DNA from: Rhodocyclales bacterium
Lineage (GTDB): Bacteria > Pseudomonadota > Gammaproteobacteria > Burkholderiales > Rhodocyclaceae
Assembly (NCBI GenBank): GCA_016235765.1
Contig: JACRIZ010000008.1
Location: forward strand, 1,838 to 65,837
Length of the DNA: 64,000 nt
Direction of reading: 5' to 3'
The notes beneath the pieces were generated by a model that did no database searches, was not told the origin of the DNA, and saw nothing but the letters and a program-made list of their open reading frames with translations. Every line of letters starts with the position of its first letter. Within the stretch, counting starts at the first letter, position 1. Positions 1 to 37,798 of this stretch are shown here, piece by piece. Both the position numbers and the translations under genes were made by a program.

Positions 1-1459
1 GCTGATAGTGGAGCACGAACTGGCCGGCGTCGAGCGCTCGCCGCAGATTGAAGTGCATCGCCAGCCGCTCCTCCGCCTCTTCATTCATTTCCTCGTTGAA
101 GAAGCGGTGGGTGTTGCGGCCGGCATCCTTGGCCCGAAACATCGCCATATCGGCCTTCTTGAGCAGCGTGCCCAGATCGGTGCCATCGTCCGGATAGATG
201 GCGATGCCCATCGACACCGTAACCTCCAGCTCGAGGGCTTTGAGGCTGAACGGCTGTGCCAGCCCCTCCGTCAGCCTCGCCAGATGGGTGACGCAGGCTT
301 CGGCATCGGGCAGTCCCGGCAACAGAATCAGGAACTCGTCCCCCCCTTGGCGGCAGAGGGTATCGCTTTCCCGCAAACAGAGCTTCAGTCGCTTCGCCAC
401 CTCCACCAGCAATTGGTCCCCGACGCTGTGGCCCAGCGTATCGTTGATGGTCTTGAAGCGATCCAGGTCCACCATCAGCAAGGCGACCTTGCGCCCCGAC
501 GCGTCGGCGACGGCCGCCGCCTGCAGCATGCGGTCCTGGACCAGGGAGCGATTCGGCAGCCCGGTGAGAACATCGTAGTAGGCCAGATAGGTCGCCCGCT
601 CTTCCGCGGCCTTGCGCTCGCTGATGTCCGTGAAGATCCAGATGCTGCCTTCCTGGGGCCGCGCCGGATCGAGGGCCCGTCCCGTCGCCTCGGCCCAGAA
701 GCTGCTGCCGTCGGCCTTCACCATCAGCAGGCTGTCACCGACGCTCATGTTGTGCCCGAAGGCGCCATAAGCGGCTTCACCGGCCAGGATGTAGGCTTCC
801 TCCGAGGGAATCAACGCCCGCATCGACAGTCCGATCATGGCGCCCGGACCATAACCGAAGATGTCTTCGAAGCGGCGGTTGCAGCTGACGATCTGCCGGT
901 TCCTCAACATCACGATGCCGACCAGGGCGTTGTCGAGCAGGGCCTCCTTCTCCGCCAGCAGCGCGGCCACCATCTCCTCGTTGCGGCGGCGCTCGGTGAC
1001 GTCGCGCCCGACGAGGACACCGTAGTAACGTTCGTCCACCACTGCCAGGCAATAGGAGAGTTCCAGACAAATGCAGGCACCCGGCGGACCGAACTCGAAG
1101 GCTATGGAATGCGAGGGTGTTTCGCGGTCGCCCGGCGGACCGGGCATTTCCCGCCGCAGCGCATCGAGCATGGCCGATGCCTCGGCGATCCCCAGGGACT
1201 CGAAAGGTCGGCCAATCAGGGCATCGGCAGGCTCGCCCAGCAGCCGGCCGAGAGCGGCATTCGCGTCGGCAACCAGGCCTTCGGGCAGGGCGAGCAGGAT
1301 GACGAAGTCGGACGTGTGGTCCAGCAACGTGCGAAAACGCTCCAGCCGATCGATATTCTGCCGCAACTGCGGGTAGTAGCTCTTGCGGAACGAGCGCTCG
1401 CCCAGGCCGATGATCTGGTCCCGGCGCGCCAGCCAGTCGTCGGCGGCGTCAGAGGGCAT
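1..1459 (-). CDS. PAS-PAS-GGDEF-EAL signalling protein (3' end, EAL domain, runs off the window)
   Basis: My own reverse-complement translation; this ORF is not in the track. ATG at 1459-1457 (MPSDAADDWLARR...). It has two PAS-like segments, a GGDEF domain (LTGLPNR..., RQGGDEFLILL, YPDDG) and the start of an EAL domain (LRRALDAGQFVLHYQ) at the window edge. The listed + strand ORF 8..1477 is its antisense shadow. Overlaps the ADH stop by 11 nt. Confidence 0.85.
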   Translation of the reverse strand, partial: MPSDAADDWLARRDQIIGLGERSFRKSYYPQLRQNIDRLERFRTLLDHTSDFVILLALPEGLVADANAALGRLLGEPADALIGRPFESLGIAEASAMLDALRREMPGPPGDRETPSHSIAFEFGPPGACICLELSYCLAVVDERYYGVLVGRDVTERRRNEEMVAALLAEKEALLDNALVGIVMLRNRQIVSCNRRFEDIFGYGPGAMIGLSMRALIPSEEAYILAGEAAYGAFGHNMSVGDSLLMVKADGSSFWAEATGRALDPARPQEGSIWIFTDISERKAAEERATYLAYYDVLTGLPNRSLVQDRMLQAAAVADASGRKVALLMVDLDRFKTINDTLGHSVGDQLLVEVAKRLKLCLRESDTLCRQGGDEFLILLPGLPDAEACVTHLARLTEGLAQPFSLKALELEVTVSMGIAIYPDDGTDLGTLLKKADMAMFRAKDAGRNTHRFFNEEMNEEAEERLAMHFNLRRALDAGQFVLHYQ

Positions 1460-2606
1460 CGCCGTAGATCGCCGTGATATCAGCGACGCTCGTCCGACGC
1501 GGATTGGTGACCAGGCAGGCGTCGCGGACCGCATGCGCGGCGAGGTCGGGAATGTCCGCCGGACGAACGCCGCGCGTCGCCAATCCGTCGGCGATGCCGA
1601 CCCGCTGCCGCAGCGCGGTCAATTCCGCAACGATGCGCTTCGCCCGCTCCCGTTCCGCCATGCCGCGCATGTCGACGCCCATGATCTCGCCGATCCGGGC
1701 ATAGCGATCGGCCGCGGAGCCCATGTTGAAGCGCACCACGTGCTCGAGCAGCAGCGCATTGCACTCGCCGTGCGGCAGGTCCAGATAGCCGCCGAGCGCG
1801 TGGGCCAGGGCGTGCACGGCGCCCAGGCTGGCGTTCGAAAAGGCAAGGCCCGCATGCAGGCTGCCCAGCACCATGTTTTCCCGGGCCGGCATGTCGTGTG
1901 CGCCGGCGACCGCCTTTTCCAGGTTGGACCAGACCAGTTCGATGGCGGCGAGGGCATGAACGTCCACCACCGGAGAACTGGCGGTGGACACATAGGCCTC
2001 GATCGCGTGGGTCAGCGCATCGACGCCGGTGCAGGCGGTGAGATAGGGGCCCATGGTCGCGGTGGTCTCGGGATCGACCAGCGCTACGTCCGGTACCATG
2101 GTCTTGCTGATGATCGCCATCTTGTAGCGATCGGCGGCATTCATGACGATGCAGAACTGGGAAATCTCGGCCGCCGTGCCAGCCGTGGTCGGAATGCAGA
2201 TCAGCGGCGGCCCCGGAACCTCGACCTGGTCCACGCCCTCGAAGCCGAGGATGTCCTGGCCGTTCGCGTGCACTATGCCAATGCCCTTGGCGCAGTCCAT
2301 CACGCTGCCGCCGCCAACCGCGACGATCACATCGCAGTTCTCCCTGGCATAGACGGCGGCACCGGCCATTACCTCGTAATTCTTCGGATTCGGCGTAACC
2401 GCATCGAAGACGACCGACTCGATGCCCGCCGCGGCAAGGTCCGCTTGCACTTCCCTGGTCCAGCCGGCCGCGATCACCCCGGGGTCGCTGACTACCAGAA
2501 CCCGCCGGGCCCGCAGGTTGCGCGCGTAATGACCCACGCGATGACGAGATCCAACGCCGAAGATGAACTCCGGGGCGACGAATTTGCGCATTTCATAGAG
2601 CGGCAT
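1449..2606 (-). CDS. iron-containing (group III) alcohol dehydrogenase
   Basis: 385-aa ORF. N-terminus is typical of the Fe-ADH family (FVAPEFIFGVGSRHRVGHYARNLRARRVLVVSDPGV). Also carries GGGSVMDCAKG and His-rich metal-site segments (DALTHAIEAY, LGAVHALAHALG). Confidence 0.85.
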   Translation of the reverse strand: MPLYEMRKFVAPEFIFGVGSRHRVGHYARNLRARRVLVVSDPGVIAAGWTREVQADLAAAGIESVVFDAVTPNPKNYEVMAGAAVYARENCDVIVAVGGGSVMDCAKGIGIVHANGQDILGFEGVDQVEVPGPPLICIPTTAGTAAEISQFCIVMNAADRYKMAIISKTMVPDVALVDPETTATMGPYLTACTGVDALTHAIEAYVSTASSPVVDVHALAAIELVWSNLEKAVAGAHDMPARENMVLGSLHAGLAFSNASLGAVHALAHALGGYLDLPHGECNALLLEHVVRFNMGSAADRYARIGEIMGVDMRGMAERERAKRIVAELTALRQRVGIADGLATRGVRPADIPDLAAHAVRDACLVTNPRRTSVADITAIYGDAL

Positions 2607-2755: not shown

Positions 2756-3664
2756 ATGGCTGTCGCCATCATGCTGACCGACCAGCCCCGCTCCTCCACC
2801 CCAATGCTCGCCGCCTCCCGGGAACCAGTCCCGACTTCGCCCGTGACCATCGTCGCCGGCATGCCGAGCCTGCCCACCTGGGCACGCCTGCCCATCAACC
2901 GCTGCAACCTGCCCGCAGTCATCCTTGGCGGCCTCACCTTCCAGCGCCATCCGACGCCGCTGGCGCTCGATGGCGTCGCCGAATTCCACGCCGACCTGTT
3001 CGAGATGCTCGACCGCTCCGAGGACCGCGCCGAGCGGGCGCGCCTGTTCCGCGACTACACGGCCGCGCACTTCTGCCTGGACCACCTGGAGGAAGCCGGC
3101 TTCGACGACCACACGAAGAAGCGCGCCAAGGCCAACTGGCTGCGCGTGCTGCGCGGCTGGAGCTTCGACGCCGACGGCCGCGAAGGTGCGGTGCTCAAGG
3201 GCTGGGTCGAGTCGCGCTTCGGCCTGCTGCCGCGCTTCCACGGCGAACCGCTGCGCGACTTCGTCTCGGCGCCCTACCTGCGCTACCTGGAAATGCGCTC
3301 GGCCGGCCTCTACGGCACCAACGCGCTGGAGGCCCAACTCGACCTGCTCTACGCCTACAGTCAATACGAATTCGCCAGGCTTGGCGTACCACCGCGGCTG
3401 ACTTTGTACCGCGGCATCAACCGCATCGCCGAACACGAGGTGCTCGCCGACCAGGGCGACCGGCAGGTGGTGCTGCTCAACAACGTCGTATCCTTCACCA
3501 CATCGCGCGAGCGGGCCGGGGAATTCGGCGACTACATCGTCGAGGCCCAGGTGCCGACCGCCAAGGTATTCTTCCATTGCGGCCTGCTGCCGGACCAACT
3601 GAAGGGCGAGGACGAACACCTGGTGATCGGCGGCGTCTACGAAGTGGCGCTGCGCACGTTATGA
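2756..3664 (+). CDS. draT: NAD+-dinitrogen-reductase ADP-ribosyltransferase DraT
   Basis: Strong resemblance to DraT as I recall it: REGAVLKGWVESRFGLLPRFH, LDLLYAYSQYEF, TLYRGIN, VVLLNNVVSFTTSRERAGEFGD, LKGEDEHLVIGGVYEV. The start is uncertain: ATG 2756 is chosen, the track ORF starts at 2663, and ATG 2771 is also possible. Confidence 0.85.
   Translation: MAVAIMLTDQPRSSTPMLAASREPVPTSPVTIVAGMPSLPTWARLPINRCNLPAVILGGLTFQRHPTPLALDGVAEFHADLFEMLDRSEDRAERARLFRDYTAAHFCLDHLEEAGFDDHTKKRAKANWLRVLRGWSFDADGREGAVLKGWVESRFGLLPRFHGEPLRDFVSAPYLRYLEMRSAGLYGTNALEAQLDLLYAYSQYEFARLGVPPRLTLYRGINRIAEHEVLADQGDRQVVLLNNVVSFTTSRERAGEFGDYIVEAQVPTAKVFFHCGLLPDQLKGEDEHLVIGGVYEVALRTL
3383..3405 (+). repeat. 23-nt motif copy a (21/23 to GGCGTGCCACCACGGCTGACTTT)
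   Basis: GGCGTACCACCGCGGCTGACTTT inside draT, read as GVPPRLTL. Confidence 0.8.
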
Positions 3665-3693
3665 TCCGTCCATCGACCCATTAGGAGCCGACC

Positions 3694-4611
3694 TTGTTCA
3701 AGGCTTTGTTCGGCGGCAAGCAGTCCAGCGAGGCACCGGAAGAAGTTCTGGAGGTGCCGGCCACGCTCATGCGCAAACCGCGGCCGGAGGAACTCAGGCA
3801 GGTCGTCGAGTATTTCCCGATCGGCAAGAAGATCCGCTACAGCCCGGAATACAAGAAGGAAGTCATCCTCGACACGCTGATCGTCGCCTACTGCGTCGAT
3901 GGCGAATTCATCTACTCGTGGGATGCCATCGAGGTCGACGCTGAGGGCGCGCCGACCGCCTTCCTGGTCGGCCCCAAGGCGCAGCGCATCGAGGTCGCCC
4001 GGGTCGCCGAGTTCCAGTTGCTGGTGCCCGACACCTCGGACCAGGAAGCCACCCTCGACTACCCGCGCCGGGCCATGATCGGCCGCGGCCGCCAGTTCCA
4101 CAAGGGCAACACCATCGCACTGATCTCCAATGCCGGCGTGCTTGGCGTGTCGACACTCGAGACCGAAGTCGACAAGCGCTTCGTCCTCAAGGACGGCCCC
4201 TACGCCCACTCGGCCATGGTGCTGCTGACACCGCAACTCGAGACCATCACGGTCTCCGACCAGCGCGGCAGCCATCGCGCCCGGATCGACGTGCCGGTGA
4301 CCATGACCATCCAGGAGCGACTGCGCGGCCCCGGCGTGATCGTGGACATCTCCGACGCCGCCATGCGCATCCGCGTCCGCGAGGGCCACACGATGCCGCC
4401 CATGGGCCGCGGCGACGACGTCACGCTCGACATCGACTTCGGCGGCGGCGACGAGGAACGCCTGTTCCGGATCAAGGCCGCGGTCATCCGCCGCTCGCCG
4501 GAATCCTGCGTCGTCCGCATCGTCGCGCATTTCAAGGACCGCCGCTTCGTACCGCTGGGCCCGCTCGACCTGCTGGAACTCAAGGCCGGGTTGCTCAATT
4601 ACGGCAAGTAA
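3694..4611 (+). CDS. PilZ-domain protein (C-terminal PilZ, unknown N-terminal domain)
   Basis: TTG start 6 nt after AGGAG (3683-3687), 30 nt downstream of the draT stop. The C-terminus has PilZ-like motifs: RGSHR (RxxxR), then DISDAAMRIRV (DxSxxG with G replaced by A). A beta-barrel-like segment follows. Confidence 0.7.
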   Translation: MFKALFGGKQSSEAPEEVLEVPATLMRKPRPEELRQVVEYFPIGKKIRYSPEYKKEVILDTLIVAYCVDGEFIYSWDAIEVDAEGAPTAFLVGPKAQRIEVARVAEFQLLVPDTSDQEATLDYPRRAMIGRGRQFHKGNTIALISNAGVLGVSTLETEVDKRFVLKDGPYAHSAMVLLTPQLETITVSDQRGSHRARIDVPVTMTIQERLRGPGVIVDISDAAMRIRVREGHTMPPMGRGDDVTLDIDFGGGDEERLFRIKAAVIRRSPESCVVRIVAHFKDRRFVPLGPLDLLELKAGLLNYGK

Positions 4612-4650
4612 GGCGGCAGGTCAGCGCCCGCCGCCTGCCACGCCAGAATC

Positions 4651-5592
4651 CTAGCGGCTGCCGACCTCAGTGATGCAGCGCGAATCAACCGTCGCATCCA
4701 CGGCAGAACGCGCCACTGGAACGGACATCAAATTCCCGCGCAGGGTGCGGATCAGGAGCCGTTCGCACTGCTCTGCGAGCACTTGCGCTCGTTCGATCTT
4801 CTCGACCGTCCCTTCCAGATATCGAACGGTCCGGTAGGGAGCACTCCCCGTTGCGGGAACCTTGGCCACTTCGTTGAACGCAATATCGAAAGACTCGGCG
4901 AGCAGGCGCGCGCTTTCATCCTTGATCCGCTGGCCGTCATTTGCCAACCAGAACGCCTGCGGATCGGTCGATTGGCCTGGCGACGAGATGACGCGGATGC
5001 TGGTTCGGTATGCGGCATCGGAACCCACGCCGGGCAACTGAATTGCCACCAGGTTATCGACGATGATCGCTTTCTGGTCCTGGGTCAGCCTGAATACCGG
5101 TACGCTCTCGACAAGGGTCGAACCTCCGGCATCAGCGTCAACCTCGATCAGGCGTGCCTCCCCGCCGACCTTCGCCCTGCCAATTGCCTTCTGCAACAGT
5201 TCCCGATAGGTGAACTTGTCCAGGCAGGGCTTGTACGGCTCCAGTACCTGATCGGCGGTGGCCTGCATCCGGTCCTTCTGCTTCTGCTTCGCCACATCCA
5301 TTACCACGCCATGCGCAAAGATTCCGACCAGCAGGCCCGCGACGCCAGGCGCCGGATAAAGCATTCCCGCCGTACCCATTCCGGCCTCGTCGAAACTGGC
5401 CACGCCATGGTAGGTCACCGGGGCGTCGGGTGGCAACCGCAACGACCATCTAGACTGCGTCTGAAGGTCCACTGGCGTCGCCTCGACCGAAACCGCAGCT
5501 TCGTCCGCAACGGCTAGCGAGTGATGCGACAACAGGAGGCCGGCCAGCGCAGCAATCAGCGTAAAGCGCATCACGACCTGACCCTGGGTCAT
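4651..5592 (-). CDS. exported hypothetical protein
   Basis: 313-aa ORF with an N-terminal signal-like segment (MRFTLIAALAGLLLSHHSLAVA). ATGA overlap with the upstream lipoprotein gene. GC is lower than the surroundings. Confidence 0.6.
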   Translation of the reverse strand: MTQGQVVMRFTLIAALAGLLLSHHSLAVADEAAVSVEATPVDLQTQSRWSLRLPPDAPVTYHGVASFDEAGMGTAGMLYPAPGVAGLLVGIFAHGVVMDVAKQKQKDRMQATADQVLEPYKPCLDKFTYRELLQKAIGRAKVGGEARLIEVDADAGGSTLVESVPVFRLTQDQKAIIVDNLVAIQLPGVGSDAAYRTSIRVISSPGQSTDPQAFWLANDGQRIKDESARLLAESFDIAFNEVAKVPATGSAPYRTVRYLEGTVEKIERAQVLAEQCERLLIRTLRGNLMSVPVARSAVDATVDSRCITEVGSR

Positions 5593-6335
5593 TGGATCGC
5601 ACTCGGCGATTGGGCGCGACCAAGTGTTGCCGTGGGCACACCCTCGCCCTTGATGGGCTTCAGCAAGGTGTCCTTGGCAATTTCGACGGCCTGGAAATAG
5701 GCGTTGGTCAAGCCGGGGAATGTCGGTGGCTCATCCCATTTCCCGTCGGCGCTCTTGGTAACGACAACAGGCAGGTACCAATCGTAGGCGTTCGTTTTCA
5801 TGTCGACCAGATAACCATTGCCATTGAGGTAGGCCTTGGGATCGCTGGTTGGGATGTAAGCCGAATAGGTCCTGATAAAGCCAAGGGCCTTCATTTCGAT
5901 GACCAATAGCCGGTTGATGTTGTACTTCTTGCCCACTGCCGTGAAGTCCTTCTTGGCGATATTCTCGCCGCCGCCGTCAAACGATGGCAATGCATCGAGA
6001 TCGATGTATTCGTCGATCACCAGCGCGTCCGCACCCTTGGCGCGCAAGTGCTTGGCAACGGTCTCCTTCATCGACGTAAGGTCGTCATGCGGCAATGTCT
6101 GGGCATGGGTCGTCAGGTCAGCATTCGCCAATGTGGCTGTCGCCAGGCAAACCAGGCAGCTTGCGCCAGGAATCTGCGTATCGAGTTTTGGCAGCGTGGT
6201 CATTGCCACGCCAACGCGGCCCGACTTCGAACCGATTGCATCTTGCGCAAGCGAAATAGGTTGTTGGGGCTTCGTTGCACAGCCGGAAACGACGACGGCA
6301 ATGGTTACCAGTGCCAAACTCAAACGACAATTCAT
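5589..6335 (-). CDS. lipoprotein of unknown function
   Basis: Internal ATG at 6335 is preceded by GGGGAGAG. Signal plus lipobox MNCRLSLALVTIAVVVSGC. About 47-52% GC in the segments I counted, against about 66% elsewhere. Confidence 0.65.
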   Translation of the reverse strand: MNCRLSLALVTIAVVVSGCATKPQQPISLAQDAIGSKSGRVGVAMTTLPKLDTQIPGASCLVCLATATLANADLTTHAQTLPHDDLTSMKETVAKHLRAKGADALVIDEYIDLDALPSFDGGGENIAKKDFTAVGKKYNINRLLVIEMKALGFIRTYSAYIPTSDPKAYLNGNGYLVDMKTNAYDWYLPVVVTKSADGKWDEPPTFPGLTNAYFQAVEIAKDTLLKPIKGEGVPTATLGRAQSPSAIQ

Positions 6336-6502
6336 TGTGACTCTCCCCTTTTTCCGGTGGAACGCTGTACGTGCCAATTGCACCGGCATAATCTTATGAC
6401 AAAATACCCATTGCTGGGTACTGGTCATTGCGCGAACGTTTGCGTCCTCCGGGTATGATGCGTCTTGTTGGGTGGCGTATCGCCTCCCGCGAGAGGCATG
6501 CC

Positions 6503-6772
6503 ATGACCAGAAACCCCAAGCGCTCCAGCACGACCCTTATCATCGCCGCCGTCGTCCTCGTCCTGGCCTTCGTGCTCAATCCGTCGCCGGACCGGCACCG
6601 CGAGAAGATTCGGTCGGTGATCGCCGAACGCAATCCGATCGCCGGTGCGCTGGGCGTGGGCGCGCTTACCGCCTTCGCCTCCGGCTACCACTCATTGGGG
6701 GTCGCGTCCTATACGAAGCTCGACGACCGGCTGGCGTCGATCGGCTTCATGGGGATGGTATTCGTCCTGTAG
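6503..6772 (+). CDS. small membrane protein (one N-terminal TM helix)
   Basis: ATG at 6503 (MTRNPKRSSTTLIIAAVVLVLAFVL...). The start upstream of this in the track ORF looks non-coding. Confidence 0.5.
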   Translation: MTRNPKRSSTTLIIAAVVLVLAFVLNPSPDRHREKIRSVIAERNPIAGALGVGALTAFASGYHSLGVASYTKLDDRLASIGFMGMVFVL

Positions 6773-6780
6773 TCGCCGGT

Positions 6781-7032
6781 TCAGGCGGCCCGCTTCACCA
6801 CGCGGTGCGGCGGTCTGGCGGCGGCGCGGGCCTGAACCGCATACTTCCAGTTCGGCCGCTTGCCGACCACCGAAGCAACCGCGGCTTCGGCACCGTCGAC
6901 CAGGATGGAGCCGGGCATGCTGTCGACAACGGTCGCCGATTTCCGCAAGGCGGAAACCAAGGCGCGTTCCTCCGCGGGGGGCGGATCGCTCAGACCGTTA
7001 TAGACGACGACGAAGCGGCTCATGTGGTTCAT
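6781..7032 (-). CDS. small hypothetical protein downstream of the S8 peptidase
   Basis: ATG at 7032 lies immediately after the peptidase TAG (7034-7036). 83 aa, no recognisable motif. Confidence 0.4.
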   Translation of the reverse strand: MNHMSRFVVVYNGLSDPPPAEERALVSALRKSATVVDSMPGSILVDGAEAAVASVVGKRPNWKYAVQARAAARPPHRVVKRAA

Positions 7033-7033
7033 G

Positions 7034-8542
7034 CTACACCAACAGGCCGGCGCCTTCAAACGTGGCGCCGAAGCCCAGTTCCTCGGCGGCCTTCAGGGCG
7101 AGGTGGATGATGGCGTCGGACCGCTTCTGGTCGCGCGCCATGTTCAGAATCCGCGACTGGCGGCCGAGCTGCCGCGCCAGGGAACCCGTGATCGCCGGAC
7201 AGGCCATGGACGTCCCGTCCATTACCGCGTAGCCGCCCGGATAGGCGGAGACAATGCCCACGCCGGGGCCGGTCAGGTCGACCTCGCTGCCGACGTTGCT
7301 GAAATTGGCGACGAAGTTCTTGCGGTCGGTACCGAACGGCTTCTGGATTGTCAGCGCCTGGGCCGCGCCGGCAGGATAGGTTCCCTTGCGGCCGAAGGCA
7401 CTGACCGCCATGGTCTGCGCATAGCGCGCCGGGTAGGAAACCGCGCCGCGGTAGTCGTTGCCGGTGGCGGCGAGACAGACGACGCCCAGCGCGCGGGCGC
7501 GCTGGATCTCGCGCAGCACGTCGGGCATGTCACCTTCGCCACCCAGCGACAGGTTGATCAGGTCGCAGCCGTCGTCGACCGCCTGGCGGATGGCCTTGGC
7601 GATGGCGAACGACTCGGCCGTCTCGCTGCTGCGCCCGAACACGCGATAGACATGCAACGCCACCCCGGGGGCGGCACCGCGCACGCCCTGGCCGGCGAGG
7701 CCGCGGCCGGCGATGATGCCGCACACGTGGGTGCCATGGCCCATCCGGTCGTCGAAGTCGGCCGCCGGCTCGCCCCGCACCACGTTCATGCCCTTGGCGA
7801 ACCTCAGGTCGGGGTGCTTCGCGGCGCCGGTATCGATCACCGCGACGCGAACGCCCTCGCCATCGGTATCGCGGCCGGCAAGCCCGAAATGCCCGCGCAT
7901 GTCGCGGTCGCCAAGGTCGATCGGCGAGCAAGCCAGGCACGGCGCACCGGTGGCGAGAGACAGCTCGGCGACATGGGCCGGCCAGTGTCCGTGGGCCGGA
8001 TAGGCCTCGACCGACTCCAGCTTGCGCACCCCCGCCGGCAGCAGCAGCCTGGCGATGCCGCGCTTGTTGCTGCGGGCCACGGCGCCGGTCCTTTCGCTGC
8101 GGCTGATCAGCGCGACCACGTCGACGCCCTCCAGCGGCCCGCCGGTCTGCTTGTCCGTCACCGCGACCTCGAAGACGAAGCGGCTGCCTGCCGCGGACAC
8201 GACGCCGGGCACGGCATTGACCTGCCGGTGCCGCAGCCACAAGGGCGACAGTTGCGTGACGGGCACGACGCGCAGCCCGGGGTGGGCACGCAACAGCTTG
8301 ATGCGCTCCGCCTCGCCCATCGAGACCAGCATGGTCTCCTGCGGCGCCACCTGGTCGAGCAGGGTCATCTTGAAATCGAAGGCCTTGAGCGACAGCAGCA
8401 CGCCGGCACGCGGGGCGGCATTCAGCAGGCGCGTCGCGGTGCGCAGGAAGGAGGCGCTGGTACCGGGTTGCCGTTCATTCCAGACATTCAGCCCGGGCAG
8501 GACCACGAATCGTAGAAATCCCGCCGGCTTGGTTACCGCCAT
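7034..8542 (-). CDS. subtilisin-like serine peptidase (S8 family), no obvious signal peptide
   Basis: Catalytic triad contexts are present: VAVIDTG (Asp), HGTHVCGIIAG (His), GTSMACPAITG (Ser). SD GGGAGGG precedes the ATG at 8542. The long + strand ORF 7022..8515 is an antisense shadow. Confidence 0.85.
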   Translation of the reverse strand: MAVTKPAGFLRFVVLPGLNVWNERQPGTSASFLRTATRLLNAAPRAGVLLSLKAFDFKMTLLDQVAPQETMLVSMGEAERIKLLRAHPGLRVVPVTQLSPLWLRHRQVNAVPGVVSAAGSRFVFEVAVTDKQTGGPLEGVDVVALISRSERTGAVARSNKRGIARLLLPAGVRKLESVEAYPAHGHWPAHVAELSLATGAPCLACSPIDLGDRDMRGHFGLAGRDTDGEGVRVAVIDTGAAKHPDLRFAKGMNVVRGEPAADFDDRMGHGTHVCGIIAGRGLAGQGVRGAAPGVALHVYRVFGRSSETAESFAIAKAIRQAVDDGCDLINLSLGGEGDMPDVLREIQRARALGVVCLAATGNDYRGAVSYPARYAQTMAVSAFGRKGTYPAGAAQALTIQKPFGTDRKNFVANFSNVGSEVDLTGPGVGIVSAYPGGYAVMDGTSMACPAITGSLARQLGRQSRILNMARDQKRSDAIIHLALKAAEELGFGATFEGAGLLV

Positions 8543-8673
8543 GTTGCCCTCCCATGTCGCTTAGGTTTCCAGACATCATATCCGGTCCCGGTCCCGGCGG
8601 CCGCCGTGTCCTGGCACCCGAACAACAGGATCACGCCGTCCAAAAACCACGCCGTTTCGGGCATCATGCGCCC

Positions 8674-9738
8674 ATGGCGATCATGCGCATTCTGCTGCCG
8701 ACCTTGTCGATGCTATCGCTGCTGGCCTGGCCGGCAACGGGCTTCGGTCTGGCCGATGGGCCGGTCAGGACACTACGCGTCCTCGCCTGGCCGGGCTACG
8801 CCGACGCCGAGGTCGTCAAGTCTTTCGAGCAACGCCATGCCGTGCACGTGGACCTGACCCTGGTCGCGACCGACGAAGCGCTGTGGGAAAGGATCAATGG
8901 CAACCAGGGCGGCGATTTCGACGTCTTCGCGGTCAATACCGCGGAGTTGCAACGCTACATCGACCGCAGGCTGGTACAGCCGATCGACGCCGCCGCCATT
9001 CCCAACACGCAGCGCCAACTGCCGCGCTTTCGCAAGGTCGAGGCCATCGCCGGCCTGACCCGCGGCGGCAAGGTCTATGGCGTTCCCTACACCTATGCCG
9101 AGATGGGGCTGATCTACGACCGCAGCCAGTTCGCCCAGCCACCCGACTCGATCGCCGCGTTGTGGGATCCGCGTCTGCGCGGCCGCATCCTGGCCTATGA
9201 CGGCGGCGGCCACAGCTTCTCGCTGGCGGCGATGATACTGGGCAAGGCCTCGCCGTTCCGGATGGCCGAAGCGGACTGGCCGCAGGCGGTGGCGCGCCTG
9301 ATCGCCCTGCGCCGCAACGTGCTCGGCTTCTACGCGCAACCCGACGAAGCGGCCCGCCTGTTCCGCAAGCACCGCGTGGCGCTGCTGTTCGCCAACTACG
9401 GCACGCAGCAGGTGAAGGCGCTCAAGGCCGCGGGCGCGGACATCGGCTACGTGATTCCCAAGGAAGGCGCCCTGGCCTGGCTGGACTGCTGGGTGGTGAC
9501 GCAGGGCACCAAGGACCTTGCGCTGGCCTACGCCTGGATCGACCATCTGCTCGGCGAGCAGGCCAGCGGCCTGCTGGTTGCGCGGCAAGGCCTGGCCAAC
9601 ACGATTGCAGAACCGTCGGGCAGCGGCGCCGCGGACCGCCTGCTCTGGCTGGAGCCGATGGAAAATCCGGGACGCCGCGACAAACTCTGGGCACGCATCA
9701 TGTCCGGCGACTCCGCCGCCAGGGTACTGGGCCCGTGA
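8674..9738 (+). CDS. periplasmic solute-binding protein (PotD/PotF-like, family 1)
   Basis: Signal peptide MAIMRILLPTLSMLSLLAWPATGFG. Followed by LRVLAWPGYAD...FDVFAVN..., typical of polyamine-type binding proteins. Confidence 0.7.
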   Translation: MAIMRILLPTLSMLSLLAWPATGFGLADGPVRTLRVLAWPGYADAEVVKSFEQRHAVHVDLTLVATDEALWERINGNQGGDFDVFAVNTAELQRYIDRRLVQPIDAAAIPNTQRQLPRFRKVEAIAGLTRGGKVYGVPYTYAEMGLIYDRSQFAQPPDSIAALWDPRLRGRILAYDGGGHSFSLAAMILGKASPFRMAEADWPQAVARLIALRRNVLGFYAQPDEAARLFRKHRVALLFANYGTQQVKALKAAGADIGYVIPKEGALAWLDCWVVTQGTKDLALAYAWIDHLLGEQASGLLVARQGLANTIAEPSGSGAADRLLWLEPMENPGRRDKLWARIMSGDSAARVLGP

Positions 9739-11477
9739 AGCTGAAGCTCGCGCAGCGTTTCGCGCTGGTCCTGGCTGCAGTAGGCATCCTGGGCGCGGGA
9801 CTGAGCGGCTACTACGCCTACCATGCCAGCCGCGAACTGCTGCTGCGCGCAGCCGAGGAGCGCCTGCTGACCTCGACGCGGGTCCTGATGCGCCAGGTCG
9901 TCACGGCCTTGCAGAAGGGCAGCCAGGACGTGCTGCTGCTGGCCAGCCATCCGCGCACCGTGGCCGCGCTGACCGCCGCCACGGGGCCGGAGCGCGCTGC
10001 CGCCGAGAACGACATCGCTGCCCTGTTTGTCGCGATGCTCAAGACGCGGCCCGACATCTACCAGTTACGCCTGATTACCGCGGCGGAGCATGGCATGGAG
10101 CGCATCCGCGTTGACCGCGACGAGGCCGGCCTGCTCCGGGTCGGGGGCGACGAGCTCCAGGAGAAGGGCCACTATCCCTATGTCTACGAAACGCTGCGCA
10201 TGCCGCGAGGTTCGGTGTTTGTCTCCAATCCGGTAATCAACCACGAGCGTGGCGCGCATGCCGGCGAAGACAAGCCGTCGGTGCATCTGGCAACGCCCAT
10301 CCATGCCGCGAACGGCGTACCGATCGGGCTGATCGTCCTGAACGCCGACCTCGACTCCGTCTTCCGCATGCTTACCAGCGACCTGCCTGGTGGCATCGGC
10401 CTCTACCTGACCAACGGCCTCGGCGATTTCCTGCTTCATCCCGACGCCAGCCAGGCCTTCGCCTTCGACCGGGGCAAGCGCATCCTGGTCCAGGACCAGT
10501 TCCCGGCCACGGCCCGGCTCTTCGACGGTCAAACCGAACACGTCGTCACGACGGCGACCCCGGATGCCGCCTCGGTCGCAGCCTTCATCAGGCAGCCGCT
10601 CAATCCACCGCAGGACAACGAATCCTTCGTGCTCGGCATGTCGCAGCCGACCGCTGCGGTACTGAGCGACAGCGATGCGCTGGGCACGGCCATCCTGCGC
10701 ATCGTCTTCGCCTTCAGCGTGCTGTCGCTGGTCCTGGCCACGCTGCTGGCGCGGGCGGTGACCGAGCCGCTGAACCAGATGGTGAGTGCGGTGCAGCGCT
10801 TCACCGCCGTCCAGGAGCGCGTGCCGCTGCCGATCGATCGCCAGGACGAAATCGGGGTACTGGCACGCAGTTTCGACGAGATGCAGCAGAAGATCGAGAT
10901 GCAGATGGGCACGCTGCAGGCCAAGCAGCGCGAACTCGACCATCTGGCCAGCCACGATCCCCTGACCGGCCTGCCCAACCGGCGCGTCTTCCTGGACCGC
11001 GTCGAGCATGCGCTGGCCCGCGCCCAACGCACCGAATCGCGCGTGGCGATCCTGTTCATCGACCTCGACCACTTCAAGGAAATCAACGACAACCTCGGCC
11101 ACGCGGTTGGCGACCTGATGCTGCTCGCAGTCGCCGACCGGCTGCGCACCACGGTGCGCGCCGCCGACACCGTGGCACGCCTGGGCGGCGACGAATTCAT
11201 CATCCTCGTCGAAGATGTCGAGAGCCTGGACGCCGTTGCCATGGTGGCCCGGAAGATCATCGAGGCGCTGGCCCACCCGGTCTGGTATCAGGACCAATCG
11301 CTGGCCGTCGGCGCCAGCATCGGCATCGCCATCTTCCCGCAGGACGGAGCCAGCACGACCGAGGTTATCGCCCGCGCGGACCAGGCGATGTACCGCGCCA
11401 AGCTTGCCGGCCGCAATCGCTACTGTCTCGCCTCGGAAGCCTCGGGAGACACCCACACGATCCCGCTCGACCTTTGA
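9735..11477 (+). CDS. membrane sensor diguanylate cyclase (periplasmic Cache-like domain, HAMP, GGDEF)
   Basis: GTG start overlaps the upstream TGA (GTGA). N-terminal TM helix, about 300-aa periplasmic domain, second TM helix. HAMP (PLNQMVSAVQRF...DEIGVLARSFDEM), then GGDEF (DPLTGLPNRR, RLGGDEFIILV). Confidence 0.85.
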   Translation: MKLKLAQRFALVLAAVGILGAGLSGYYAYHASRELLLRAAEERLLTSTRVLMRQVVTALQKGSQDVLLLASHPRTVAALTAATGPERAAAENDIAALFVAMLKTRPDIYQLRLITAAEHGMERIRVDRDEAGLLRVGGDELQEKGHYPYVYETLRMPRGSVFVSNPVINHERGAHAGEDKPSVHLATPIHAANGVPIGLIVLNADLDSVFRMLTSDLPGGIGLYLTNGLGDFLLHPDASQAFAFDRGKRILVQDQFPATARLFDGQTEHVVTTATPDAASVAAFIRQPLNPPQDNESFVLGMSQPTAAVLSDSDALGTAILRIVFAFSVLSLVLATLLARAVTEPLNQMVSAVQRFTAVQERVPLPIDRQDEIGVLARSFDEMQQKIEMQMGTLQAKQRELDHLASHDPLTGLPNRRVFLDRVEHALARAQRTESRVAILFIDLDHFKEINDNLGHAVGDLMLLAVADRLRTTVRAADTVARLGGDEFIILVEDVESLDAVAMVARKIIEALAHPVWYQDQSLAVGASIGIAIFPQDGASTTEVIARADQAMYRAKLAGRNRYCLASEASGDTHTIPLDL

Positions 11478-11492
11478 CCCTGGGGTCGCGCG

Positions 11493-11975
11493 TCAGTCCT
11501 TCTTCAGGTTGAACTTGTGCGCGACGTAGGTCTGCGACCCCGTCGGCGGCGGCGGATACCTGATGTCCCTCAGCGCTTTCGCGACGGCTTCGGACAGATC
11601 CTGGTCTTCGAAGTCGCTGTGGATGATCGCCGCTTCCGCCACCCGGCCGTCCGGGTCGATCTGCCAGTCCGCTTCGATGGCGCCCTCGGTCCTGGCCGGA
11701 TGCTTTGCCAGATAGGCGATCCACGCCGCCTGTATTCCGGCGGCGTGCTTGCGCAAGGTGTTTTTCACCGCCTCGTCACGATAGGGATCGGCGCCGGCAC
11801 GCGCTCCGCGCTGCGCGGGAGCGGCCGCGACTTTCGACATCAGCATCGCGACCTGTTCGTCGGTACGCTGTTGCGCGAAGTAGAACCAGCCCCAGGAGGC
11901 GATCAGCGTCGCCGCCAGGGCAGCGATGACTGCCGCCTGGGTTGTGCTCTGTCGCTCAGCGATATCTGAACACAT
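11493..11975 (-). CDS. membrane-anchored TonB-C/AgmX-like domain protein
   Basis: One TM helix (AAVIAALAATLIASWGWFYF). The C-terminal domain (GAIEADWQIDPDGRVAEAAIIHS...IRYPPPPTGSQTYVAHKFNL) resembles a TonB/AgmX C-terminal fold. Overlaps the upstream gene's stop by 20 nt. Confidence 0.55.
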   Translation of the reverse strand: MCSDIAERQSTTQAAVIAALAATLIASWGWFYFAQQRTDEQVAMLMSKVAAAPAQRGARAGADPYRDEAVKNTLRKHAAGIQAAWIAYLAKHPARTEGAIEADWQIDPDGRVAEAAIIHSDFEDQDLSEAVAKALRDIRYPPPPTGSQTYVAHKFNLKKD

Positions 11976-13554
11976 AGGTCGCGCCGGAGTTCAGGGCCGA
12001 ATTGTCGGCGCTGGCCGTCGTGCCGTTGGTGACGGATGTCTGGCTGCTCGATTCGCGCTGTGCACCCGCGACCACGGAGGTGCCGCTCACTGCCACGCTG
12101 ATGCCGAAATAGTCGTCGGATTCGGCATTCGGCGCCTTCAGGTAGGCCTGTCGTGCCCAGGTCGTGCCGGTACGCTTGAAGACGTAGGCCGCTCCGGCCG
12201 AGGCAGCGGAATTGTCGCTGCTGCCGCTCGTACCGTTGATGACGGTCGTGCGGTTGCTCGATTCATGCGGGGCCCCTACCACGGCAATGTCGCCTGACAG
12301 AGCAACGCTTGCGCCGAAGAAGTCGCCAGCCTCGGCGTTCGGCGCCTTCAGGTAGGCTTCCTGCGCCCAGGTCGTGCCGGTGCGCTTGAAGACATAGGCC
12401 GCACCGGCCTCCAGGGCGGAGTTGTTGCCGCTGGCGGTCGTGCCGTTGGTTGGCGTCGTCTGGCTGCTTGCTTCGCCGGACGCACCCACGACGATCGTTT
12501 CGCCATTGATGGCGACGCTCTCGCCAAAGTGATCGCCGGCCCCGGCGTTGGGCGCCTTCAGGTAGGCCTCCTGCGCCCAGGTCGTGCCGCTACGCTTGAA
12601 AACGTAGGCCGCGCCCGCGGCGGCCGCAGAGTCGTCGGCACTGGCGGTCGTGCCGTTGGTGATCGTCGTCTGATTGCTGGCCTCGCCTTTCGCGCCGACC
12701 ACCACGGTATCGCCGTGGATCGCAACGCTGAAGCCGAACTCGTCGTTCGCCCCGGCGTTCGCTGCCTTCAGGTAGGCCTGTTGCGCCCACGCCGTGCCCG
12801 TGCGCTTGAAGACGTAAGCCGCGCCGGCCTGCGCAGCGGAGTTGTCGGCGCTGGCGGTCGTTCCGTTGGTGATGGTCGTCTGGTTGCTGGCTTCGGAATG
12901 CGCCCCGACCACCACCGTATCGCCCGCCACCGCGACGCTGTAGCCGAAGTCGTCGCCGGCCCCGGCATTCGGCGCCTTCAGGTAGGCCTCCTGTGCCCAG
13001 GTGGTGCCGGTACGCTTGTAGACGTAGGCGGCACCGGCAGAGGCCGCGGAATTGTCCGCGCTGGCCGCGGCGCCGTTGGTGATCGTCGTCTGGTTGCTGG
13101 ACTCGCCGGAAGCGCCGACCACGACGGTGTCCCCATTGACGGCGACGCTCTCGCCGAAGAAATCGCCGCCCCCCGAATTGGGCGCCTTCAGGAAGGCCTC
13201 CTGCACCCAGCTCGTCCCGCTGCGCCGGAACACATAGACAGCGCCAGCCCAGGCGACGGAATTGTCGGCGCTGGCCGTGCTGCCATTGGTGATCGTCGTC
13301 TGGTTGCTGGCTTCACCCAGCGCGCCGACGACCATCGTATCGCCGTCGATCGCGACCGAGTAGCCGAGTTGATCGGTCGCGCCCGCATTCGGCGCCTTGA
13401 CGTAGGCTTCCTGCCCCCAAACGAGCGCGGCCGCAGGAGTGGATGTAGTCGCTCCGCCGCTTACCCCTCCGCCACCACCACCACCGCCACCGCAACCTGC
13501 CACAACGGCAACGGACAGCACCCCGGCAATAGTCCTGCAAACGCTCTTAGGCAT
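11956..13554 (-). CDS. FG-GAP-like seven-repeat beta-propeller lipoprotein
   Basis: ATG at 13554 (MPKSVCRTIAGVLSVAVVAGC, a lipobox) followed by a poly-Gly linker. Then six 70-aa repeats plus one 63-aa repeat of AYLKAPNAGAGDxFGxSVAxxGDTVVVGAxxEASNQTTITNGTTASADNSAAxAGAAYVFKRTGTTWAQE. Confidence 0.8.
   Translation of the reverse strand: MPKSVCRTIAGVLSVAVVAGCGGGGGGGGGVSGGATTSTPAAALVWGQEAYVKAPNAGATDQLGYSVAIDGDTMVVGALGEASNQTTITNGSTASADNSVAWAGAVYVFRRSGTSWVQEAFLKAPNSGGGDFFGESVAVNGDTVVVGASGESSNQTTITNGAAASADNSAASAGAAYVYKRTGTTWAQEAYLKAPNAGAGDDFGYSVAVAGDTVVVGAHSEASNQTTITNGTTASADNSAAQAGAAYVFKRTGTAWAQQAYLKAANAGANDEFGFSVAIHGDTVVVGAKGEASNQTTITNGTTASADDSAAAAGAAYVFKRSGTTWAQEAYLKAPNAGAGDHFGESVAINGETIVVGASGEASSQTTPTNGTTASGNNSALEAGAAYVFKRTGTTWAQEAYLKAPNAEAGDFFGASVALSGDIAVVGAPHESSNRTTVINGTSGSSDNSAASAGAAYVFKRTGTTWARQAYLKAPNAESDDYFGISVAVSGTSVVAGAQRESSSQTSVTNGTTASADNSALNSGATYVFRYR
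11959..13406 (-). repeat. seven in-frame tandem DNA repeats with exact 210-bp period
   Basis: The marker GGCGCCTTCAGGTAGGC or a close variant recurs at 12131, 12341, 12551, 12761, 12971, 13181 and 13391. Spacing is exactly 210 bp each time. Confidence 0.85.
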
Positions 13555-13650
13555 GATGCCCCCAAAAAGTAGTACGACATGAGTGCAGCGGAAAATACCA
13601 GCGAATGAAATATGGCTATGCCAGTTGCCAAATGACGACACCCCGGGATC

Positions 13651-13666
13651 TGTCGCAAACACGACA
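13651..13666. promoter_or_regulatory. NifA upstream activator sequence (TGT-N10-ACA)
   Basis: TGTCGCAAACACGACA. Near-identical to the UAS copies upstream of nifV (TGTCGCAAACCCGACA) and rnf (TGTAGCAAACGCGACA) in this window. Confidence 0.65.
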
Positions 13667-13705
13667 TCGCCACGCATACCCCACGCTCCGATGCGGCTTT
13701 CAGCC

Positions 13706-13721
13706 CGGCCCGGTTCTTGCC
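13706..13721 (+). promoter_or_regulatory. sigma54 (-24/-12) promoter candidate for the SIR2-like/hemerythrin operon
   Basis: CGGCCC-GGTTC-TTGCC has GG and GC at the canonical 12-nt register. Predicted +1 is about 13732, leaving a 20-nt leader with AGGAGA before ATG 13752. Confidence 0.55.
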
Positions 13722-13751
13722 TGTAGTCATTCAGACTTACAGGAGACAACC

Positions 13752-14603
13752 ATGATTAGCTCCAAATTCCGAACAGAGATGCTGGCCGGCCTCAAGGACG
13801 GCAGCGTGGTGCCCTACCTCGGTCCCGGCGTTCTGGCCGACGTCCGCCACGCCGAAACGGGCGCGGCGATGCCCATCACCAGCGACGAACTGATCATCGC
13901 CATGAACGGCGGCAAGCCGATGTCGCCCAAGCTCATGTACGAGTTCCCGCGTGCGGCGATGAACATCGAACTGAAGCGAGGTCGCTCGGCCGTCACCAAA
14001 TTCCTCGACGCCACCTACAACGCGCCTTGGACCCGCAGCGCCGTGCATGACTGGCTGAAGGCCATCCGGCCCGCCTACGTGATCGACATCAACCGCGACA
14101 CGCAGTTGCTCGATTCCTACGCCGACGTGCCGCACACCCTGGTGCTCGGCTGCGCCCGCATCGGCGGCACCGACTTCCGCTTCAAGCTCTTCGCCTGGGA
14201 CGGCATGCACTACAGCGCCATCGCCCCCGGCCAGGCCGCCCTGGGCCTGCCGCTGCTGTTCAAGCCGATGGGTGCGCCCAAACCTGAATCGACCTACATC
14301 GCCTCCGACGCCGACTACGTCGACTACATCACCGAACTGATGGGCGGCTTCGCCGTGCCGGCCTACGTCAAACAGTTGCGGAGCGACAAGCGCTACCTCT
14401 TCCTCGGCATGCGCTTCAACCGCGACAGCGAGCGCATGGTGATGTCCGACATCATCTACAGCGCCGCCGCCGGCCCGGCCGGCTGGGCGCTGATCGAGAG
14501 TCCGACCGCCAAGGAGCAGCGCTTCCTGGCCAAGATGGGCATCGTGATCGTCGAAGGCAGCGTCGCCGAACTGATGGGCGCGGAGGAGGCCGTGACATGC
14601 TGA
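13752..14603 (+). CDS. SIR2-like (SIR2_2-type) domain protein
   Basis: ATG at 13752 after AGGAGA. Motif order recalls the SIR2_2 family: GSVVPYLGPGV (N-terminal Gly-rich loop), YVIDINRDTQLLDSY (compare TTNYD..LE), LLFKPMGAP....YIASDADYVDYI (compare KLHGS...DY) and KRYLFLGMRFNRDSERMVMSDI (compare lFlGySl.D). The assignment is from memory of family motifs, not a search. Confidence 0.55.
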   Translation: MISSKFRTEMLAGLKDGSVVPYLGPGVLADVRHAETGAAMPITSDELIIAMNGGKPMSPKLMYEFPRAAMNIELKRGRSAVTKFLDATYNAPWTRSAVHDWLKAIRPAYVIDINRDTQLLDSYADVPHTLVLGCARIGGTDFRFKLFAWDGMHYSAIAPGQAALGLPLLFKPMGAPKPESTYIASDADYVDYITELMGGFAVPAYVKQLRSDKRYLFLGMRFNRDSERMVMSDIIYSAAAGPAGWALIESPTAKEQRFLAKMGIVIVEGSVAELMGAEEAVTC

Positions 14604-37715: not shown

Positions 37716-37798
37716 GTTACTTTAGTAATATGGCGCGACAATATGTTTGGCATGATGGCATCATAATAAGCCGCAATGCGGCCCGACAAAGAGAATAT

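Follow-up and report, generated by a model that had tools for sequence, protein, structure and literature searches.

A predicted YcgR-like c-di-GMP receptor gene behind draT in a Rhodocyclales nif locus: probable lineage-restricted insertion and unlikely input to nitrogenase ADP-ribosylation

The gene that directly follows draT, encoding dinitrogenase reductase ADP-ribosyltransferase, in the nif locus of a Rhodocyclales bacterium probably specifies a cytoplasmic protein of the YcgR/PlzD type, a c-di-GMP receptor built from two domains. Its place after draT is best read as a lineage-restricted insertion, probably with no role in ADP-ribosylation. Control by DraT and DraG is classically governed by PII proteins. 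From the gene order in the 64,000-nucleotide stretch of DNA analysed here (the window), the original prediction had proposed a c-di-GMP input to DraT; such a link between the PilZ protein and DraT, if true, would for the first time bring a second messenger into DraT/DraG control. The evidence presented below argues instead that an insertion brought the two genes together by accident, and we regard a regulatory link from the PilZ protein to DraT as quite unlikely.

Both predicted genes are present, with Pfam matches to DRAT and PilZ, respectively (Table 1). DraT is 58–91% identical to its relatives (alignment A2), and its start codon is tentative because the conserved region opens only near residue 37. 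The predicted TTG start of the PilZ gene, which has a good ribosome-binding site, is supported by the MLK/MFK..LFG N-terminus shared by its homologues. No terminator-like site was detected on the plus strand of the short draT–PilZ spacer, nor was a stable fold found across it (3655–3700, −3.3 kcal/mol, z +1.44); given these features and the narrow gap, the two genes are probably co-transcribed in this lineage, in agreement with the original prediction. Downstream of the PilZ gene, the fold of 4606–4665, which includes a GC-rich hairpin, was not significant (−23.7 kcal/mol, z −1.17). Upstream of draT (2607–2755), neither a sigma-54 pattern nor a NifA-UAS pattern was matched, and one sigma-70-like site (2730–2757) overlaps the draT ATG. 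The draT–PilZ junction is spanned by contigs of three studies (X1 record 3, X2 records 13 and 14, X5 record 19, and X6 record 30), which rules out mis-assembly as the source of the adjacency.

Table 1 Features of the draT–PilZ region and of related genes in the window
Feature	Position	Strand	Details
PAS-GGDEF-EAL gene	runs off window start	-	747 aa; EAL part upstream of window
Block of ercA and PAS-GGDEF-EAL gene	2-2606	-	between nifH and draT
ercA	1449-2606	-	NCBIfam ErcA, 605.6 bits vs cut-off 550
draT	2756-3664	+	302 aa from ATG 2756 (tentative); stop TGA 3662-3664; Pfam DRAT E 8.1e-97
Interval between draT and SIR2-like gene	3665-13600	.	~9.9 kb; absent at this place in relatives
draT–PilZ spacer	3665-3693	+	29 nt; AGGAG at 3683-3687, 6 nt before TTG; without terminator
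PilZ gene, YcgR-like (xPilZ-PilZ)	3694-4611	+	305 aa; TTG start at 3694
N-terminal PilZN-like beta-barrel domain	3781-4260	+	residues ~30-189; alignment A1, structure match
Interdomain QRGSHR, RxxxR c-di-GMP motif	4261-4278	+	Q190, R191, R195; RGSHR = residues 191-195
C-terminal PilZ domain	4261-4608	+	beta-barrel plus C-terminal helix (residues 290-301)
DISDAA, [D/N]hSxxG motif with Gly to Ala	4345-4362	+	D218, I219, S220, A223; DISDAAM = residues 218-224
GC-rich hairpin directly 3' of PilZ stop	4611-4636	+	between convergent genes; no U-run
dCache-HAMP-GGDEF gene	9735-11477		Pfam; dCache below cut-off
SIR2-like gene	13605-14603	+	Pfam, synteny; usual draT downstream partner
Hemerythrin gene	14597-14986	+	Pfam, synteny; usual draT downstream partner
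draG	15017-15934	-	Pfam, synteny; usual draT downstream partner
GAF-PAS-PAS-GGDEF-EAL gene	37730-40804		Pfam

Judged by its sequence, the 305-aa protein is a member of a conserved family of ~303 aa centred on Rhodocyclaceae and relatives, which occurs in Accumulibacter, Propionivibrio, Azospira, and Sulfuritalea, among others. A homologue search with the protein yielded 287 matches; among the matches listed, most are ~271–338 aa long and the nearest are 81–91% identical. Named sources of the matches include Azospira restricta and Propionivibrio. Overall, family sequences are only ~50% identical. Most homologues carry a precomputed PF07238 (PilZ) label. In the 305-aa protein itself, the PF07238 match at residues 190–275 is marginal (25.5 bits vs a cut-off of 22.5), and its gene was not picked up when the whole genome was scanned with PF07238 at E up to 0.01.

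The AF2 model of the protein (pLDDT 79.6; strands within 196–287, followed by the terminal helix) and a structural match to the BcsA PilZ domain (Z 13.2–14.0, rmsd 2.1–2.3, 96–97 residues aligned) both display the six-stranded barrel and C-terminal helix of a PilZ domain. Foldseek returned VCA0042, MotI, PP4397, YcgR, PlzA, and MrkH as best matches, and the whole protein aligned with VCA0042/PlzD (1yln) over both domains (Z 12.1, rmsd 4.5, 203 residues). The N-domain matched YcgR-N 5y6h over 102 of 110 residues (Z 8.9, rmsd 2.9), with split-barrel flavin-binding proteins next (Z 7–7.8). Pfam PilZN (PF07317) and PilZNR (PF12945) gave no match in the protein at E up to 0.1; Atlas feature matches of the N-domain to PilZN/PilZNR clusters (0.78–0.80) serve as leads only. 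Conservation within the family peaks in the N-domain, which has a near-invariant LVPDTSD..LDYxRRAxIGRGRQFxKGN (alignment A1). As modeled, the protein is thus YcgR-like in build, with a PilZN-like N-domain that lacks binding motifs fused to a PilZ domain.

Residues D189, Q190, R191, and R195 at the domain junction, as well as D218 and S220 of the second motif, are each kept in 121 of 121 family sequences. The full [D/N]hSxxG motif is absent from the 305-aa protein. Its Gly is replaced by Ala, as had been predicted, and position 223 is Gly in only 10 of the 121 sequences, the others having Ala (77), Glu (17), Asp (14), Ser (2), or Val (1). Some non-binding PilZ proteins serve as ligand-independent adaptors. 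The protein might be read as a degenerate PilZ that lost c-di-GMP binding along with the Gly of the SxxG turn and now acts as such an adaptor, its place after draT being incidental. Consistent with that reading, 108 of 121 relatives have Ala, Glu, or Asp at the Gly position, the Pfam match is only just above its cut-off, searches of solved structures by sequence with the family profile and with the PilZ domain alone gave only chance-level hits (E at least 0.39) and no match to any PilZ chain, and an hhalign comparison with the genome’s own YcgR was insignificant (probability 1.2). Moreover, an importance of the SxxG turn to the binding of c-di-GMP is stated in passages of Galperin and Chou (bioRxiv 10.1101/814665). 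However, the invariance of both Arg residues of RxxxR, of the preceding Asp-Gln, and of D218 and S220 in a family of such low overall identity would be difficult to account for if these residues did not touch the ligand, and Ala is small enough that a tight turn may still form. Loss of ligand binding is therefore unlikely, and c-di-GMP binding is probably retained because RxxxR and DxS are invariant.

The family’s gene neighbourhoods differ by genome and include maf with a convergent gene of unknown function, a U32 peptidase gene and rng, a NiFe hydrogenase, glmS, mutM, and a sigma factor gene; draT was near a family member at none of 36 species loci. A role as a second flagellar brake, with the protein targeting the motor in the manner of YcgR, MotI, and PlzD, is distinctly improbable. 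Although the protein’s best structural relatives are flagellar brakes and flagellar genes occur in the genome, a canonical YcgR (PilZN plus PilZ; RREYYR, DISGGG) is already encoded in the flagellar region (C23:54226-54897), 10 kb from fliM (C23:65092). Furthermore, no family member lies beside flagellar genes among the annotated neighbours of the 36 loci, and the N-domain lacks the Pfam PilZN signature.

The insertion is evident from gene order. In this genus the usual arrangement is nifH<>draT-SIR2><draG: nifH is directly divergent from draT in seven genus relatives, and in 8 of 14 draT-bearing relatives SIR2 is found no more than 1.5 kb downstream of draT. The order in G016, nifH<>draT-SIR2><draG-fdx-fdx-FDP-nifB, equals that of the window minus its inserts. 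Here, nifH is found at G000:C41:30-926(-), and the interval between draT and SIR2 begins with the PilZ gene and also holds, by Pfam, two unknown minus-strand genes and genes for an S8 peptidase, a solute-binding protein, a Cache-HAMP-GGDEF protein, and an FG-GAP protein. Toxin-antitoxin genes occupy the same draT–SIR2 spot in G001 and G002. Thus, the position of the PilZ gene after draT is a recent, lineage-restricted rearrangement in which the gene heads an insert in the draT–SIR2 spacer.

In a sample of 301 genomes of the bacterial family, 30 have the receptor, 124 have DraT, and 11 have both, with no association between the two: DraT is present in 11 of 30 receptor genomes vs 124 of 301 overall, and in 8 of the 18 genomes with the best-scoring orthologues (E below 1e-100). 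Nineteen of the 30 receptor genomes gave neither a DraT nor a NifD/K-type match, and 12 of these 19 are at least 94% complete. Where both genes occur, they adjoin only in G000, and G115 has 126 kb between them. Of the draT-bearing relatives, 1 of 14 (G013) has a PilZ gene adjoining draT; the two genes are on different contigs in G003, G005, G010, and G024. A scan of metagenome contigs for close relatives found three loci. A sister species, represented by G013 and metagenome contig L066, has the pair (DraT 90% and PilZ 74% identical, with different flanks), as do near-identical strains from three studies. In G013, an apparent 50-nt deletion splits the PilZ frame. Conservation of the adjacency elsewhere, on which the original prediction depended, was therefore not borne out: with the pair kept only in near-identical strains and one sister species, the result comes close to the confinement to a single strain that the prediction itself had held to be adverse. 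Separately, persistence of the pair in the sister species and strains could reflect selection for linkage and not mere closeness.

A rival reading is a lineage-specific co-option, in which the PilZ protein, translated from draT mRNA, would bind DraT (or NifH, DraG, or PII) and Fe-protein ADP-ribosylation would respond to c-di-GMP. In its favour are the narrow, terminator-free gap with its good ribosome-binding site, retention of the pair where the downstream flank differs, the PAS-GGDEF-EAL gene between nifH and draT, the Cache-HAMP-GGDEF gene in the same insert, and contacts of PII with c-di-GMP enzymes in Azospirillum brasilense, as given in passages of PMC7646526. Nevertheless, this reading has little probability: the family occurs mostly without DraT or nitrogenase, the two genes are unlinked in three genus relatives, the G013 copy appears to have a split frame, none of the N-domain changes tested is lineage-specific, and GGDEF genes are common in the genome. 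The proposed c-di-GMP input to DraT likewise founders on the lack of co-occurrence, on the 19 receptor genomes without nitrogenase, and on the break that the insert makes in the draT-SIR2-draG order. A complex prediction with DraT (37–302), the PilZ protein (30–305), and two c-di-GMP molecules scored 0.00 in both runs and speaks neither for nor against an interaction. A literature search found no paper joining PilZ, DraT, and nitrogenase, and among the titles, abstract openings, and passages covered by wider searches, none shows DraT or nitrogenase activity to be a target of a PilZ protein.

The window had also been described as rich in c-di-GMP turnover genes. The three genes are indeed present, and c-di-GMP genes lie on both sides of draT, but enrichment is weak: with 45 GGDEF matches in 3.16 Mb (0.91 per 64 kb), three in a 64-kb window has P ~0.065 (Poisson), and enrichment was dropped as evidence. 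Highly unlikely is the broader proposal that a wandering YcgR-like receptor, captured behind draT in a groundwater Rhodocyclaceae lineage, couples c-di-GMP to the nitrogenase ADP-ribosylation switch; there, the PAS-GGDEF-EAL and Cache-GGDEF genes, as invaders of this same nif locus, would govern c-di-GMP, and a biofilm or redox second-messenger input would be added to a system thought to answer to PII and energy status only.

Based on these findings, we propose a plausible scheme for a receptor placed by insertion. First, the invariant residues of QRxxxR and D-h-S would bind c-di-GMP where the two domains meet, upon which the two barrels would close. The liganded receptor would then act on a protein partner through its highly conserved N-domain; this partner would be common to diazotrophs and non-diazotrophs and hence would not be DraT. 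At the nif locus, the PilZ gene heads the ~9.9-kb insert in a spacer that takes other inserts in relatives. Read-through from draT is probable here, so the gene may share draT expression without a part in nitrogenase ADP-ribosylation. The main value of the analysis is thus negative: gene order alone is insufficient ground for pursuing a DraT link to what, as far as sequence can tell, is an ordinary predicted c-di-GMP receptor. On a smaller scale, the analysis also has a positive outcome: a conserved, predicted xPilZ-PilZ receptor family of Rhodocyclaceae and relatives with a DhSxxA-type second motif and a highly conserved N-domain.

In Azospirillum and Rhodospirillum, draT-draG(-draB) form an operon. 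The arrangement described here is similar in that a gene lies directly 3' of draT and probably shares its transcript; unlike in those genera, however, the place is not taken by draG, found 11 kb away on the opposite strand, and the common downstream neighbour of draT in this bacterial family is a SIR2-like gene. A link between nitrogen signalling and c-di-GMP is documented in A. brasilense, where the PII protein GlnZ controls c-di-GMP cyclase and phosphodiesterase enzymes (passages of PMC7646526). There, in contrast to the draT–PilZ idea, PII acts on the c-di-GMP enzymes; the main text of that paper contains no ‘PilZ’ and reports no c-di-GMP effect on DraT. The N-domain resembles PilZN1–7, the taxon-restricted PilZN-type variants of Galperin and Chou, in being a lineage-limited, PilZ-related N-terminal barrel without binding motifs that is fused to PilZ; a Rhodocyclaceae-centred variant is not named among PilZN1–7 in the passages covered of that work (bioRxiv 10.1101/814665). 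Compared with VCA0042/PlzD (Vibrio), MotI/DgrA (Bacillus), YcgR (E. coli), and PP4397/FlgZ, the N-domain here (~160 aa) is some 50 aa longer and is without Pfam PilZN/PilZNR, the second motif has Ala in place of Gly, and the gene stands outside a flagellar neighbourhood. The protein nonetheless shares with all of them two beta-barrels, an RxxxR motif in the linker, and, at the C-terminus, a PilZ barrel that ends in a helix.

The ORFs and their Pfam matches confirm that a PilZ-domain gene lies directly behind draT, separated by a short spacer (table). Its TTG start is supported by the N-terminus that homologues share in the alignment. The spacer holds no terminator-like site and no stable fold (−3.3 kcal/mol, z +1.44), so read-through from draT is likely and in this lineage the two genes are probably expressed together, in keeping with the original prediction of co-transcription. 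A GC-rich hairpin after the PilZ stop codon is not significant (z −1.17). An assembly artefact as the source of the adjacency is ruled out by contigs of near-identical strains from three studies that bridge the junction: X1 record 3 spans it with 0 differences, X5 record 19 (1984 nt) covers 2888-4614 with 60 differences, and X6 record 30 (390 nt) lies at the junction with 10 differences.

Coordinates of the draT-PilZ region, c-di-GMP-related genes and loci in related genomes (G, genome; C, contig; L, extracted locus; plain numbers, window)
Feature	Position	Strand	Evidence or context
nifH	C41:30-926	-	window's contig
PAS-GGDEF-EAL gene, 747 aa	between nifH and ercA	-	
ercA	between PAS-GGDEF-EAL gene and draT	-	NCBIfam equivalog, 605.6 bits
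draT	2756-3664	+	Pfam DRAT, E 8.1e-97
draT-PilZ spacer, 29 nt	between 3664 and 3694	+	AGGAG at 3683-3687 (sequence)
PilZ gene, 305 aa, TTG start	3694-4611	+	ORF; Pfam PilZ domain
About 9 kb of unrelated genes	between PilZ gene (+) and SIR2-like gene (+)		
Two unknown genes, 313 and 279 aa	4651-6428	-	no family match; GC 0.565-0.61, about 0.66 elsewhere
TGT-N10-ACA site	13651		pattern match
SIR2-like gene (+), hemerythrin gene (+), then draG (-)			Pfam domains
Two ferredoxin genes, flavodiiron-like protein gene, nifB	beyond draG	-	
GAF-PAS-PAS-GGDEF-EAL gene	37730-40804	+	100 nt after rnfH, between rnf operon and nifM-like, nifZ, nifV
Canonical YcgR gene (PilZN plus PilZ; RREYYR, DISGGG)	G000:C23:54136-54942 (L068 237-1043)		10 kb from fliM
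Gp49/HigB-like plus HTH pair, G001	L045 573-1470		between draT and SIR2
Gp49/HigB-like plus HTH pair, G002	L048 2360-3176		between draT and SIR2
draT of G002	L048/L053, G002:C4:139465-140293		two frames, broken at ~residue 233
PilZ gene of G013	L057/L070, G013:C78:9539-10397		frame split
Convergent ~360-aa protein gene	L012 6897-7991	-	no Pfam match; downstream of U32 peptidase gene; 15 other loci
PilZ orthologue behind NiFe hydrogenase large-subunit gene, G010 and two matching contigs	L003 4106-6912; L056; L065		directly behind it
C_GCAxxG_C_C redox protein gene, divergent from PilZ orthologue, G003	L054 833-1459	-	GGDEF gene beside it
C_GCAxxG_C_C redox protein gene, divergent from PilZ orthologue, G005	L055 2487-3903		PilJ/PAS gene beside it

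Comparison with relatives indicates how this arrangement arose. In 8 of 14 draT-bearing relatives, draT is followed within 1.5 kb by a SIR2-like gene, and the order in G016 (nifH<>draT-SIR2><draG-fdx-fdx-FDP-nifB), equals the window's order minus two inserts. By this synteny, an insert of ~9.9 kb (about 3665-13600) begins with the PilZ gene. As nifH and draT diverge directly from each other in seven genus relatives (G001, G003, G005, G010, G012, G015 and G016), ercA and the PAS-GGDEF-EAL gene (window 2-2606; G000:C41:1128-4443) look like a second insert in the nif locus. Toxin-antitoxin-like genes stand between draT and SIR2 in G001 and G002; this spacer thus takes up foreign DNA and looks like an insertion hot-spot. 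We conclude that a recent insertion brought the PilZ gene to its place behind draT.

Conservation of the adjacency, which a functional link had been expected to show, did not emerge. None of 36 species-level loci with a family member (up to 6 kb each side) contains a DraT match, and the neighbours vary by lineage: nadD-rsfS-rlmH-maf precede the PilZ family gene in some loci, an unknown convergent 364-aa gene followed by U32 peptidase and rng genes comes after it in 16 of 36, and NiFe hydrogenase genes, glmU-glmS, mutM or an ECF-type sigma factor gene occur elsewhere. In loci L013 and L028, the orthologue follows genes for a sigma-54 response regulator and both hydrogenase subunits, small and large. 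DraT was detected in 14 of 40 relatives (same genus 10/16, other genera of the family 4/8, other families of the order 0/16), and a PilZ gene lies downstream of draT only in the sister species G013; in G003, G005, G010 and G024 the two genes are present but on separate contigs. A metagenome contig (L066), 98-100% identical to G013, carries the pair intact with 87 nt between the genes; the G013 gene lacks 50 nt present in L066, which may be genuine variation or an error of assembly. The window and this sister species share 90% identity in DraT and 74% in the PilZ protein; the unlinked G005 copy is 80% identical. Past the PilZ gene, G013 has different DNA (a MazF-like gene, RNase T, TMEM175, a PAS-GAF-GGDEF-EAL gene and hemerythrin), and the X5 contig is unlike the window directly after the stop codon; the two genes have therefore remained neighbours despite changes in their flanks. 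Such retention at gaps of 29-87 nt is expected by chance, yet it is the sole point favouring linkage.

Co-occurrence gave a similar picture. The taxonomic family was sampled with 301 genomes: the profile of the PilZ family (E up to 1e-20) matched 30 of them, DraT was matched in 124 and NifD/K-type proteins in 138. DraT and nitrogenase occur together in the same 11 of the 30 PilZ-family genomes; the other 19, 12 of them at least 94% complete, show neither. The DraT rate is thus 37% vs a background of 41%, that is, there is no enrichment; it is present with 8 of the 18 orthologues that score best (E below 1e-100). Because the sampled genomes are related to each other, these counts carry no statistical test. 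Of the 11 genomes with both genes, only the window's own has them adjacent; they are 126 kb apart in G115 and on different contigs in the rest.

The original prediction read the pair as a c-di-GMP input to nitrogenase ADP-ribosylation. Conservation, co-occurrence and synteny lend this role no support; a lineage-specific role has a low probability. No publication treating PilZ, DraT and nitrogenase together was found in the library searched, and wider searches of titles, abstract starts and partial text yielded no report that a PilZ protein affects DraT or nitrogenase activity. In the accessible portion of a 2026 review, DraT/DraG and c-di-GMP occupy separate sections and "PilZ" is absent from the main text. 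In Azospirillum brasilense, the PII protein GlnZ has a cyclase and a phosphodiesterase as binding partners, according to the available part of PMC7646526; the direction of the known link is therefore from nitrogen status to c-di-GMP. Nor do c-di-GMP genes stand out in number in the window, which the original prediction called rich in them: the genome has 45 GGDEF matches (0.91 per 64 kb), other contigs likewise carry three within 17-40 kb, and the three in the window (Poisson P ~0.065, our own arithmetic) are unremarkable. The genome also encodes one single-domain PilZ protein.

RGSHR occupies residues 191-195 of the PilZ protein and DISDAAM residues 218-224. In the available text of bioRxiv 10.1101/814665, the second motif is defined as [D/N]hSxxG, with the SxxG turn important for binding. 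The replacement of its glycine, as noted in the original prediction, holds: position 223 is Ala here, and among 121 family sequences it is A in 77, E in 17, D in 14, G in 10, S in 2 and V in 1, so the second putative ligand motif is incomplete. D189, Q190, R191, R195, D218, S220 and R225 are invariant in the same 121 sequences; that all other contact residues are invariant at ~50% overall identity argues that the predicted c-di-GMP binding is kept in the family.

The protein has 287 relatives in a search of 5.8 billion proteins, most of those listed being ~271-338 aa long; named ones are labelled "PilZ domain-containing" or "hypothetical", and hosts are Rhodocyclaceae, Azospira, Propionivibrio and similar MAGs. 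In Pfam, residues 190-275 match the PilZ domain (25.5 bits, cut-off 22.5), and there is no PilZN-type match at E up to 0.1; NCBIfam has no match, hhalign to the genome's own YcgR gave a probability of 1.2, and sequence searches of solved structures returned chance matches only. A language-model feature search weakly indicated PilZN/PilZNR clusters (0.78-0.87), which serve as leads only. Aligning 21 sequences shows better conservation in the N-terminal part (residues ~40-185) than in the PilZ part. The AlphaFold2 model (mean pLDDT 79.6; residues 1-25 disordered) has two beta-barrels and a terminal helix, and its best Foldseek matches are the two-domain receptors VCA0042/PlzD, MotI/DgrA, PP4397, YcgR, PlzA and MrkH. 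With VIA-align, residues 192-305 match BcsA PilZ domains (Z 13.2-14.0, rmsd 2.1-2.3, 96-97 residues aligned), residues 30-305 match 1yln (VCA0042; Z 12.1, rmsd 4.5, 203 residues), residues 28-190 match 5y6h (YcgR-N; Z 8.9, rmsd 2.9, 102 residues), and the N-domain matches split-barrel flavin-binding proteins (Z 7-7.8). The gene product is an ordinary, though uncharacterised, YcgR-like putative c-di-GMP receptor. Its build, a taxon-restricted N-domain followed by PilZ, agrees with the "xPilZ-PilZ" class, whose N-domains are taxon-restricted, as set out in the available text of Galperin and Chou (bioRxiv 10.1101/814665).
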